30,633 nucleotides of DNA, from positions 1-30,633 of the IMG/VR virus record IMGVR_UViG_3300029888_000014. One strand, 5' to 3'. This document shows, piece by piece, positions 12,001 to 15,000 of the stretch. This DNA comes from a virus. Lineage: Duplodnaviria > Heunggongvirae > Uroviricota > Caudoviricetes. The stretch's first letter is position 1. Each line of letters starts with the position of its first letter. Position numbers: made by a program.

Positions 12001-15000
12001 ATCTTCAGGAAGGAGCCGTCAAGAAACATTTTATCGTGGACGTTGTTGTCATTACGGGAAGGACTGAGACGCTTACTGACCTCCGGGCTGTGACGAAACG
12101 TTCTGGAAAGACGCGTTCTGGAGTGTTCCCGCGCCTTCGTCTCGGTCATTTGCACCACCAGCATATCCGCCGGATCACAGATGATGCCGTACACAATCCA
12201 GCCGTCAATCAGCCCTTCGGTTTTCCCGGTTCGCGCAGGTCCCACAAACACCACCGCGTCATATTCACGGGCTGATAATGTATTAATGGGGTCAATCATA
12301 TAGGGCGTCAGCGATGACTCCCACGGACCGGAAGTATTGGCTCCCCGTGGTACCCGCATATAACGCCTGATGGCTTCCGCTACTGGTAACCGGCTGGGCG
12401 GGCGAAACAGCGAGGCCACTTCGCGCCAGATATCGGATGCGCGGCTATGGCTCTCGTTCACCTGATTCACATATCGGCCTCATCACAACAGTCAATGACT
12501 GCCTTTTCCAGTGTGTCGCGGATCTCATCAACCACAATCTGTACTTCATTCAGTTGTGATGCGGTCCACCCTCTGTCCCTTTCCAGCCGGTCAGGCCAGG
12601 TTTCCAGTACCTGAACTATCGCTTTCACCACGACAGAAAAGGACCGCCTGACATCACTGACAGGCACAAGCTGAACAGTTTCATGCTGAAATTTAAGACG
12701 CTCGCGCTCGGACTGATACCATGCCTTCCGATCATGTGGGTTCATCTCTTCATCTTCGGAAGTCGGTGGTTTTTCCAGCAACGAAATAATCAAATCCGTC
12801 AGGAGATACAGTTTTTTCTTTTCATTACTGCCTGGTGCAAGAGGAACATCCGCCATTCTGGCGGCAACAGTCTGCCGGTGCAGACCTGAAAGGGCTGCCA
12901 GTTGATTAATATTTAACTTCATATTTTTCAGCTCGCCGTCCATTTACATCCCTCCACATAAACCGCTGAACAAAAGTGGCTCTTTTTTTGTAAAGAAATG
13001 CCGCCATATAAAGATGTCGAACAAAAATCAACCGCAATCATCATCTTTTTAATGCTAAACACATTAAAAACAGTAAGTTACCATTATGATGATGATGACG
13101 ATAAAATCACAAAAATGCGCCTTTTTCCGCGCCGCCCGCCCCGTGTTCAGGCCCACCCCACCAGGAGGACCCGCAAAAATGATAATGGTTATCATTTTCA
13201 ATGTAGTCCGGTTTCTTCCACCATCGCACCGGACAGGCGACTATGAGGGGACAACGCCGCGCTCCGTTAACGCGGTAAACCCCGGTGTGTATCGTTTTTG
13301 ATTATCCCCGCACACTCGCGCAGAGGAGTATCCCGGTCGGGCTGCGGTCTCTGTTAATGCGGGGATACGGCGACAATACCGCGCATGGATAATAAGGTCG
13401 CTCAACACACTCGCTGTAATGCAGCGGATACCATGCGGCATTTAGCGGTATTCATCGTACACTCAACGGTTAGCTCTTCATTCGTGGCATTCACCTGAAA
13501 GGTCCGGGAGTGTAATTGCATACATTTACCACTGAACGAACCTTCAACAAGAACACGACCACGCTGCAAAATACGGAACAGAATTGTTCCCTGAAGAGGC
13601 TTTACGGTTACCAGTAATTTCTTCATGCATTCTCCGGATAACAAAAATACTAGTTAATACACTGAGTGCGGATATATTCCTGCGCCCCTTCCAGCTGCTT
13701 CTGCATTGTCATCAACCGTTCTCTGAGGATGAAATAATCCCGTTCAGCGGTGTCTGCCAGTCGGGGGCCGGTTGCATTATCCACGCTGGAGGTGCCGGTG
13801 GCTTCACGCACGGTACCGGGGCAGGTGGCGTTGACCCGCAGGCGCTTACGACCAGCGGCAACATCAGCGCGCAGAGTTTCATTTTCAGCTCTCGCATCGG
13901 CTAATTCCTTCGTGTATCTGGCATCAAGCGCAGCGACATCTCGCTGGCGCTGCTGCATGTCAGTAATAGTGGCATTCGCCAGTTTCAGCTCACTGACTTT
14001 TTTATCGCGCTGCGCTTTGTAGGTGATGGCGTTATCGCGGTAATGATTCAGCCCCAGACTAAGCACACTACAGGCTACCAGCATGACAATAATCACCACA
14101 CACAGAACACGGTTCATATCACCACCAACGGATTGCCCAGACCAGAACAGCAATGGCCACAATACGAATGGCAAATGCCATTGCCCGAATAAGTTCAGCA
14201 CTCATCTTTTTAAAGTTCACGATTTCAGCGCAATGACCAGTTTTGCCAGCCCATACAGCATCGGAGACACAGCAATACCAACAGCCACCCACTTAATAGC
14301 AAAAGCCAGCGCTCTGCTGATGTCATCAGTCACTGTCACCCCAGCAGCCCCGACGAAGACAACATCACCCAGGCGAGGGACAGAAAAAGAGCAACCAGCA
14401 TTAGTGAAAATGAAATACCGACAATCACACACAGGACCTTTGCCGGCGTTATGAGTTTGTCTGACATAGCTACCCCTTAATTGCCACAATTAACTGGGAT
14501 ACTACCCATAAAAAAGGGATGCTCCAGACCAGCAAAAATTTCCAGTTTGGTAATTGACTAATCATGAGTCGCAACTCCCTAATCAGTTTGCTAAAATCAA
14601 TCAAGGCAGCCTCCCATAGCTTACTGCCATAAAAACAAAACCCCGCTTGCTGCCAACAAACGGGGTTTTTACTTTTATTCACTTACGTTTCGCCAGTTCG
14701 CAGGATTTCGTGTTATCCGCCCGCGTGGCCATACCTTATTTTTCAGCAAAATATTCTGCTTATCTGTCGATACCCCAGCACGCCAGCGCGCTCTCCTGGT
14801 CACGACGGGATACCTGACCGTAACAGTTGTTTGAACGAATACGGCAGTCTCTGCCACCGTCCTTAATCCACCAGCGAATCGCTTCGCAGGCACCTTTTCG
14901 ATCACCTGCATTAATTCGTCTGTAAAACGTCGACGGGAAACACTTACCGGGACCAATGTTGTACGGACAGAATGACGCGATCCCCGCTTTCTGGGGTTCG

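Follow-up and report, generated by a model that had tools for sequence, protein, structure and literature searches.

The lysis genes of phage 21, of the Shiga toxin (Stx) phages 933W and H-19B and of the Qin prophage of E. coli K-12 are organised as a cassette, in which a pinholin and an endolysin of the signal-anchor-release (SAR) type are followed by the Rz/Rz1 spanins. In 933W, H-19B and their relatives, this cassette is treated as S-R-Rz/Rz1, with or without ant. Lysis timing sets the burst size of the phage and also determines how Stx phages release Shiga toxin. Here, the interval between R and Rz was analysed in a stretch of caudoviricete DNA of 30,633 nucleotides (IMG/VR record IMGVR_UViG_3300029888_000014; this whole stretch is referred to as the window), which is a lambdoid, Stx-phage-like E. 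coli prophage whose late operon lies on the minus strand. The window has the same flanking genes as the known cassettes (a PF04971 holin, a YdfR/DUF1327 gene, a SAR-like lysozyme and Rz/Rz1), but whereas in K-12 Qin R overlaps Rz directly (rrrQ with rzpQ) and the whole interval described below is absent, four micro-genes and a hairpin separate the two genes in the window. In the published annotations, no gene is marked in 933W and H-19B at the positions homologous to these micro-genes.

Small accessory proteins have been described in several other phage systems. LydB, LydC and LydD of P1, RI and RIII of T4 and ORF52 of BSPM4 are reported to be extra small tuners of lysis timing that are dispensable for lysis itself. 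The morons of lambdoid phages (bor, lom and the membrane exclusion proteins of the HK97 gp15 type) are small accessory genes of the late operon, terminator-associated, mosaic and dispensable; a classical moron is preceded by a promoter of its own and followed by a terminator. Finally, the releasin gp25 of phage Mu (DUF2730) is a membrane-tethered protein of 99 aa, with an N-out/C-in topology and an acidic cytoplasmic domain of 73 aa, that the SAR endolysin needs in order to be released and that also releases the SAR endolysins of other phages, a plasmid with the 933W SAR endolysin being among the constructs used (PMC9239132).

The R-Rz spacer of the window measures 642 nt, in agreement with the roughly 640 bp given by a first-pass annotation of the same DNA, and consists of a terminator-led array of four separate, conserved and closely packed micro-genes for single-helix proteins, named p44, p43, p38 and p28, all of them on the minus (lysis) strand (Table 1; coordinates are window positions throughout, and L-numbers label comparison loci). 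The micro-genes are separated by gaps of 2, 2 and 11 nt, with 1 nt between p28 and Rz, and tile 96.9% of the interval 14119-14604, a coverage that averages 67.6% (sd 14%) in dinucleotide shuffles and is reached by 5 of 3000 of them (p about 0.002). The predicted pairing energies with the anti-Shine-Dalgarno (anti-SD) sequence are -10.2 kcal/mol for p44, -8.4 for p43, -6.0 for p38 and +0.3 for p28; about 4% of the start-codon contexts on the minus strand reach -8, p44 and p43 among these, and p38 falls within the top 12% or so. All four open reading frames (ORFs) match PHROG hidden Markov models (HMMs), with E-values summarised as 4.5e-21 to 6e-5 (3e-24 for p38 alone), and the families concerned (phrog_6632, phrog_4906 and phrog_1115/4493/3246) are all of unknown function. 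Each ORF contains one hydrophobic segment by hydropathy, to which p44 adds a short N-terminal amphipathic helix.

Table 1. Coordinates of the micro-gene array, its leader hairpin and the neighbouring genes of the late operon in the window
Feature	Position	Strand	Details
p44, 44 aa	14604-14470	minus	LIDFSKLIRELRLMISQLPNWKFLLVWSIPFLWVVSQLIVAIKG; TTG start; phrog_6632
p43, 43 aa, single transmembrane (TM) segment	14467-14336	minus	MSDKLITPAKVLCVIVGISFSLMLVALFLSLAWVMLSSSGLLG; phrog_4906, 4.5e-21; RefSeq WP_001280935
p38, 38 aa, TM-only	14333-14217	minus	VTDDISRALAFAIKWVAVGIAVSPMLYGLAKLVIALKS; phrog_1115, 3e-24
p28, 28 aa, TM-only	14205-14119	minus	phrog_4493, 3.8e-6; phrog_3246, 9e-5; RefSeq WP_032140280
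Terminator-like hairpin	14673-14627 (stem 14669-14637)	minus	A-tract 5', U-tract 3'
Late antiterminator Q	21440-20619	minus	PF03589, 8.5e-51
S21-type holin (class II, pinholin-type)	15927-15712	minus	PF04971, 9e-33
YdfR/DUF1327 gene, between S and R	15707-15357	minus	PF07041, 5.8e-46
R, T4-lysozyme-type endolysin (Phage_lysozyme)	15293-14760	minus	PF00959, 1.5e-24
Rz i-spanin	14117-13650	minus	PF03245, 3.4e-51
Rz1	13897-13712	minus	ORF embedded in Rz

The micro-gene families are under purifying selection. When dN/dS was computed with the Nei-Gojobori method over all distinct sequences of each family and compared among the three frames, the called frame gave the lowest value in each of the three families (0.23-0.46): 0.29 against 0.80 and 1.71 for p43 (n=23), 0.23 against 0.68 and 2.49 for the p60 family to which p38 belongs (n=22), and 0.38-0.46 against 0.68-0.98 and about 2 (0.68-2.1) for p44/45. 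The suggestion that the lysis cassette holds unannotated micro-proteins is thus borne out by selection, SD sequences and PHROG matches as far as the micro-proteins are concerned, although "unannotated" applies to p44 only, since PGAP calls p43, p38 and p28 as hypothetical proteins. None of the four ORFs matched a Pfam family at E<=1, searches of NCBIfam and of PDB sequences left the micro-proteins unmatched, and the PADLOC models gave zero matches at E<=1 for six family members. No literature was found with the RefSeq accessions, peptide strings or PHROG identifiers of the micro-proteins, nothing relevant was found on genes "between R and Rz" (a survey of spanins does not discuss intervening genes), and the supplements of the enterohaemorrhagic E. 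coli translatome studies do not contain the micro-peptides. A hairpin-led micro-gene array between endolysin and spanin is a layout that was not found described, whose member families are catalogued and uncharacterised.

The first gene, p44, which the first-pass annotation overlooked, starts 5 nt past an SD sequence GGGAGG (14615-14610). An internal ATG at 14565 would yield a 31-aa TM-only form, and short forms of 31 and 33 aa of the p44/45 family occur elsewhere; phrog_6632 scores 6e-5 for the 31-aa form and 1.2e-23 for an Enterobacter homolog. Homologs from Salmonella, Providencia, Citrobacter, Enterobacter and Klebsiella carry M or V at the position where p44 starts, a start position shared across six genera, and have the N-terminal motif IDFSKLIRELR in common with it. 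The AlphaFold2 (AF2) model of p44 contains two helices (residues 4-16 and 21-43). The gene is found in 892 of the 5426 complete E. coli genomes, and in none of the eight RefSeq matches listed does an annotated feature lie under the match. At the DNA level, the first ~12 codons of p44/45 (ATTGATTTTAGCAAACTGAT.CGGGAGTTGCGA; window 14569-14604) are almost invariant across E. coli, Enterobacter, Citrobacter and Klebsiella (L042, L149, L153, L154), with a proportion of synonymous differences (pS) of 0.26, compared with 0.60 in the TM half; this could reflect a constraint at the nucleotide level, a recombination linker or recent exchange. A second copy of a conserved 19-mer, at 21522-21540 inside RusA on the other strand, was dismissed as a chance match.

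The second gene, p43, starts with an ATG preceded by the SD sequence AAGGGG and encodes a protein with a Kyte-Doolittle hydropathy of 2.87, in a family of more than 60 variants that are almost all exactly 43 aa long. DNA resembling p43 occurs in 1702 of the 5426 complete E. coli genomes, at 4602 places and up to 11 per genome, and the protein is encoded in 276 phage records, mostly of Stx-converting phages and mostly unannotated. The first-pass annotation had correctly placed this single-TM ORF and a second hydrophobic segment in another frame running to 14217, and had suggested, as one of two alternatives, that a one-base shift would join them into one protein of 80-85 aa with two TM helices, comparable to a class II holin or antiholin. 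In favour of such a split gene, six database proteins of 79-83 aa do join p43 to p38; these are, however, six single-member clusters with five different junctions, several of which lie, by inspection, in or beside short base runs, as sporadic indels or assembly errors would produce but an ancestral gene would not. In related prophages, where a single ORF spanning 14217-14467 was to be looked for, p60 and p43 appear as separate genes, and in reverse order. The interval is not a FRAMESHIFTED gene, p60 and p43 being independent genes in prophages with the order R - hairpin - p60 - p43 - Rz (L005, L006). The length of p43 is kept in its many variants, each ORF holds one hydrophobic segment instead of the two expected in a class II holin or antiholin polypeptide of ~65-95 aa, and no ORF has a holin match in Pfam, while the genuine holin of the window is readily recognised. 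The comparative data already refute the split gene, for which we see practically no probability left.

A resemblance was noticed between the transmembrane domain (TMD) of p43 (VLCVIVG...MLVA...LSL) and the N-terminal TMD of Rz (VLCVVI..MLVA..LSL; window 14030-14117), at both protein and DNA level. With the Rz of the window, the alignment score is matched by 50-255 of 5000 composition-preserving shuffles (1-5%), with the Rz of L088 by 0.3-11% and with that of L005 by about half or more. A duplication of the Rz TMD as the origin of p43 was not adopted on these unconvincing frequencies, and the likeness remains a hint.

Alignment identifies the last two genes, p38 and p28, as predicted TM-only short forms of one family, p60/p50, both aligning from the same column. 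Hence, the second hydrophobic segment of the first-pass annotation corresponds to the C-terminal 38 aa of a 60-aa p60 protein, whose conserved N-terminus of 22 aa is gone. p38 differs from the p60 of L005 by seven synonymous and one non-synonymous changes, and the variable sites in p60/p38 are distributed over the codon positions as 3/2/10 and 3/1/10, a third-position bias. At the junction, the codon that starts p38 after a moderate SD is GTG in 47/47 truncated copies and GTA in 57/57 full-length p60 genes, so that a change from GTA to GTG would have created the start codon of p38; the PGAP version of the protein is a TTG-extended form of 51 aa (WP_042004856). Another 38-aa short form has a genuine ATG start (MSADFIRAVAFAIKW..., in L133). 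The 28-aa ORF, which indeed abuts Rz as previously noted, shares homology with the C-terminal half of a family allele of 50 aa: the gene for the 50-aa protein VRKYKRFFLRL... (L051/L079) joins a p60-like basic N-terminus to the p28 helix, and the 3' half of its DNA is identical to p28. p60 is present in 1598 of the 5426 genomes. Its AF2 model begins with a short helix at the N-terminus, which a loop connects to one long helix; as helix-loop-helix structures only, the models of p60 and p44 are too small for a fold search. An exhaustive HMM search with the p60 profile retrieved only 25 cluster representatives, which makes the family narrow, with no bridge to a known family, and a scan of GTDB species representatives with the p60 alignment produced nine pattern matches, of which zero were confirmed.

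These short forms are where a non-functional origin has to be weighed, that is, that some or all of the ORFs, chiefly p38 and p28, are scars of recombination or fragments in decay whose frames happen to have stayed open. The loss of the conserved p60 N-terminus from p38, the lack of an SD in p28 and the phage phiSTEC1589-Stx1c (L003), in which p38 is frameshifted and p28 lost, would fit such an origin, and the near-identical copies of the window-type interval offer no lineage-specific evidence of constraint. Against it stand the independent recurrence of short forms (the ATG form of L133, p28 in p60-p28 intervals and the 31/33-aa forms of p44/45), the complete separation of GTG from GTA between truncated and full-length copies, and the preserved tiling and coupling; for p43 and p44, the frame-specific dN/dS argues strongly otherwise. 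On balance, chance persistence is considered improbable for the array.

The hairpin ahead of the array, with a stem of 15 pairs of which 6 are GC and the minus-strand tail GTTTTTAT / GUUUUUAU, has the GC-rich stem-loop and U-tract of an intrinsic terminator, termination itself being a prediction. On the minus strand it folds with an energy of -20.0 kcal/mol; for the plus strand, where the stem contains an A.C mismatch and the T-rich tail is TACTTTTATT, the value is -13.6. The 161-nt hairpin context has a fold z of -2.75. The bidirectional terminator previously reported here is thus present as a hairpin, its bidirectionality is plausible, and it is clearly stronger on the lysis strand. The start of p44 lies 32 nt downstream of the hairpin end. 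Of 59 distinct regions upstream of a first micro-gene, 57 were scored as having a GC-rich hairpin with a T-run, mostly at a distance of 32-36 nt whatever gene stands upstream, and with at least five variants of the inner stem (TTTG/CAAG, AACG/CGAT, GCTG/CAG, ATTG/CAGT and GAAACG/CGGTC). Conservation was judged by folding each sequence separately, as bulges put the stem columns out of register for a covariation count. The leader hairpin therefore belongs to the micro-gene module, its structure being conserved with differing stems.

No sigma-70-like promoter was found in the 32-36 nt between hairpin and first start codon, and a promoter scan of the minus strand over 13500-16200 gave zero matches. 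On the plus strand, a promoter-like site (CTGACA-18-CACAAT, with TG) at 14461-14490 is directed at the hairpin. This arrangement recalls the type I toxins (Hok, TisB, ShoB/OhsC, Ibs/Sib), 30-60-aa hydrophobic peptides that form a single helix and are encoded beside strong hairpins, and the micro-genes might by analogy encode depolarising peptides controlled by a plus-strand antisense RNA that ends at the bidirectional hairpin. The small size and hydrophobicity of the products, the A- and U-tracts that flank the hairpin on both sides in every context examined, the plus-strand site and the unusual nucleotide conservation of the first 12 codons of p44/45 would all suit such a system. Promoter-like matches do not, however, exceed those of shuffled sequences (2 found, 2.7 expected), and an Rfam search of the interval, with gathering as well as E-value thresholds, returned nothing significant, the best match being ohsC, whose 20 bits fall short of the gathering score of 50 (E=3.2). 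In addition, no toxin family of Pfam is matched, and the micro-genes are embedded in and coupled to the late operon, with no terminator between them and Rz, instead of forming a self-contained promoter-terminator unit. A type I toxin is consequently regarded as quite improbable.

In one further context (L135, ~2150-2195), perfect TTGACA and TATAAT hexamers follow directly after the hairpin, but only 13 nt apart, just before a 50-aa TM ORF without an SD.

Comparison of 80 IMG/VR loci anchored on Rz indicates that the array is a recombination mosaic of shared modules, with layouts that range from one to four micro-genes. About 40 loci, nearly identical to one another, have the window type (R-Rz 642 bp). 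Other intervals measure 1413 bp (with an ant insertion before the array), 478-489 bp (p60-p43), 438 bp (p60-p28), 335 bp (the 50-aa gene alone) and 297-298 bp (a 45-aa relative of p44 alone), and decayed versions are also found among the surveyed loci. One more R-Rz layout combines a 50-aa TM protein (phrog_12997), a 47-aa variant of p60, a 49-aa TM protein and a p28-like gene, and module orders elsewhere include Ant-p31-p43-p38-p28 and arrays with two further families of micro-TM proteins. The window type, which occurs in 587 complete E. coli genomes, resembles a p60-p28 interval that has had p44 and p43 substituted for the 5' end of p60. The micro-gene families are common in Shiga-toxin-type phages: 933W (NC_000924.1, 27420-27569; L155 3421-3570) contains an unannotated p43 homolog of 48/49 aa between ant and Rz, and H-19B (L158, AF034975, 1337-1633) has a match to the p44/45 family in its unannotated R-Rz gap of 297 nt. 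In Salmonella phage SPN3UB (L156, 2001-2129), an unannotated p45 lies just ahead of Rz.

The micro-genes are enriched downstream of endolysins. About half of the independent contexts directly follow one, and p60 or p45 are found immediately downstream of five endolysin families (R21-type lysozyme, P21-like lysozyme (L088), GH108, Peptidase_M15_4 and GH19), in the company of holins of the S21, Phage_holin_8 and 3_7 types and followed by Rz, by the spanins phrog_1026/1275 or by a 60-aa lipoprotein. This enrichment bears on the possibility that the micro-genes are moron-type cargo unrelated to lysis, whose small inner-membrane products would help the lysogen or the phage in some other respect, for instance through superinfection exclusion by blocking a DNA-entry component, with the R-Rz junction serving as a permissive hot spot. 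Like morons, the micro-genes are small, mosaic, probably dispensable, terminator-associated and placed at late-operon junctions. Relatives of p45 and p60 at tail, baseplate and head-proximal junctions would favour cargo, as would a Citrobacter copy with terminators on both sides, the probable non-essentiality, high turnover and very variable TM halves of the genes, and the insertion of an ant gene at this very site in 933W and PhiR5_1. In contrast to classical morons, the window has its hairpin upstream and no promoter-like site in the few nucleotides between hairpin and start codon, a downstream terminator occurs only in the Citrobacter copy among the contexts examined, and the micro-genes are tightly coupled to the next late gene, Rz. 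Moreover, a frequency of about one half behind endolysins of five unrelated families is far above the expectation for random junctions. Cargo unrelated to lysis is judged unlikely, if deserving of serious attention.

The reading that we tentatively favour, with a little less than an even chance, is that the micro-genes encode late-expressed, non-essential modulators of the lysis programme in the inner membrane. Since no promoter was found after the hairpin and Q also lies upstream on the minus strand, transcription of the array probably depends entirely on Q-modified RNA polymerase, which would read through the hairpin late in lytic growth. Translation would then proceed from the SDs of the array itself, together with coupling, down into Rz, whose ribosome-binding site (GGTGGTGA; anti-SD energy -6.2 kcal/mol) overlaps the 3' end of p28. 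The products would be inserted N-in in the inner membrane, concurrently with holin, SAR endolysin and spanin, and may modulate the lysis programme in a non-essential manner and in either direction, for example by altering when the holin triggers. The variety of holin, endolysin and spanin types in the neighbourhood makes a generic target (membrane energisation, a host membrane protein or self-association) likelier than any single lysis protein. The micro-genes are probably non-essential, given their absence from K-12 Qin and the frameshifted or interrupted copies of some prophages.

Several observations weigh against a role in lysis. No homology to characterised lysis proteins was found in Pfam, NCBIfam, PADLOC or PDB, p28 has no SD, and p38 and p28 may be recombination remnants; in addition, the window-type copies are so nearly identical that selection within this layout is not measurable. 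A few of the 57 hairpin scores are spurious, those of L133, L134 and L145 being weak or low-stability stems inside coding sequence, and at L153 the tally took an upstream terminator and not the proximal hairpin. Members of the families also lie outside lysis cassettes: p45 precedes gpJ in Citrobacter and, in Klebsiella and Salmonella phage SEN34, stands between the genes for the baseplate spike and wedge, and p60 follows a Big_2 protein and a tail-fibre assembly gene. These contexts fit generic moron cargo as well as they fit a lysis role.

A lysis role would bring the micro-proteins close to the accessory proteins of P1, T4 and BSPM4, which are likewise small and encoded in or near lysis genes and are unrelated to them in sequence; the micro-genes differ in occurring outside lysis cassettes too. 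As regards releasin, gp25 resembles them as a small single-TMD protein that is encoded a few genes from a SAR endolysin and acts on lysis from the membrane. The micro-proteins are, by contrast, 28-44 aa long in the window and up to 60 aa in relatives, probably N-in, with a basic N-terminus and no match to DUF2730 or any other Pfam family, and their genes also accompany GH108, M15 and GH19 endolysins. They do not resemble i-spanins, having at most about 10 residues after the TMD and no long periplasmic coiled coil.

A more specific and rather unlikely proposal, put forward alongside the modulation of lysis, is that hairpin and micro-genes constitute an unrecognised mobile cassette of late operons, in which the terminator-like leader would insulate one to four shufflable genes. 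Their products could then be generic "lysis clock tuners" that act on membrane energisation or through contacts between TMDs. The latter route, suggested by the likeness of p43 to the Rz TMD and by a GxxxS motif in p60, could shift the triggering of holins of any class or the firing of spanins.

About 30% of complete E. coli genomes carry conserved, selected genes of these families for membrane proteins of 28-60 aa at the junction of endolysin and spanin. Should the micro-proteins tune lysis, a textbook pathway would gain a component it has been missing, and if the cassette proposal holds, they form a new layer of lysis control, which the model Stx phages 933W and H-19B would carry without its being annotated. 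If they do not tune lysis, the locus is a clean example of micro-gene shuffling and truncation at a recombination hot spot.

Regarding the surrounding lysis genes, R carries an E-8-D-5-T motif and an Ala/Gly-rich, SAR-like N-terminal segment. Its start, 63 nt past the YdfR stop, has no detectable SD (+0.6 kcal/mol), and the ribosome-binding sites of the micro-genes are much stronger than that of this upstream gene. Further upstream, AsxR, STnc100 and three tRNAs (18730-19320, minus) are followed directly by a nanS-p-like SASA esterase gene (16607-18577, minus), with no stx ORFs between the tRNA/small RNA block and the esterase; the prophage is a stx-less relative of Stx phages. An ORF for an AraC-family helix-turn-helix protein lies at 19347-20060, between Q and the tRNAs. 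A full-length match to the sok antitoxin RNA (110 bits; 23462-23636, minus) implies that another part of the prophage carries a hok/sok type I toxin-antitoxin locus.

Downstream of the micro-genes, the GH108 and M15 cassettes (L098 2825-3022; L094, L133, L147) have an overlapping gene that encodes a lipoprotein of 60-65 aa (phrog_7528, lipobox LVGC), near which no recognisable i-spanin was seen; the layout mimics an overlapped spanin pair, and the proteins seem too short for the periplasm. Downstream of Rz, the window contains a 74-aa ORF (13402-13626, minus; MKKLLVTVKPLQG...; phrog_2571, of unknown function) that is also kept downstream of the lipoprotein gene in these cassettes. Finally, the ~60 nt right after the R stop of the window reappear after the lipoprotein gene (L098 3034-3093).

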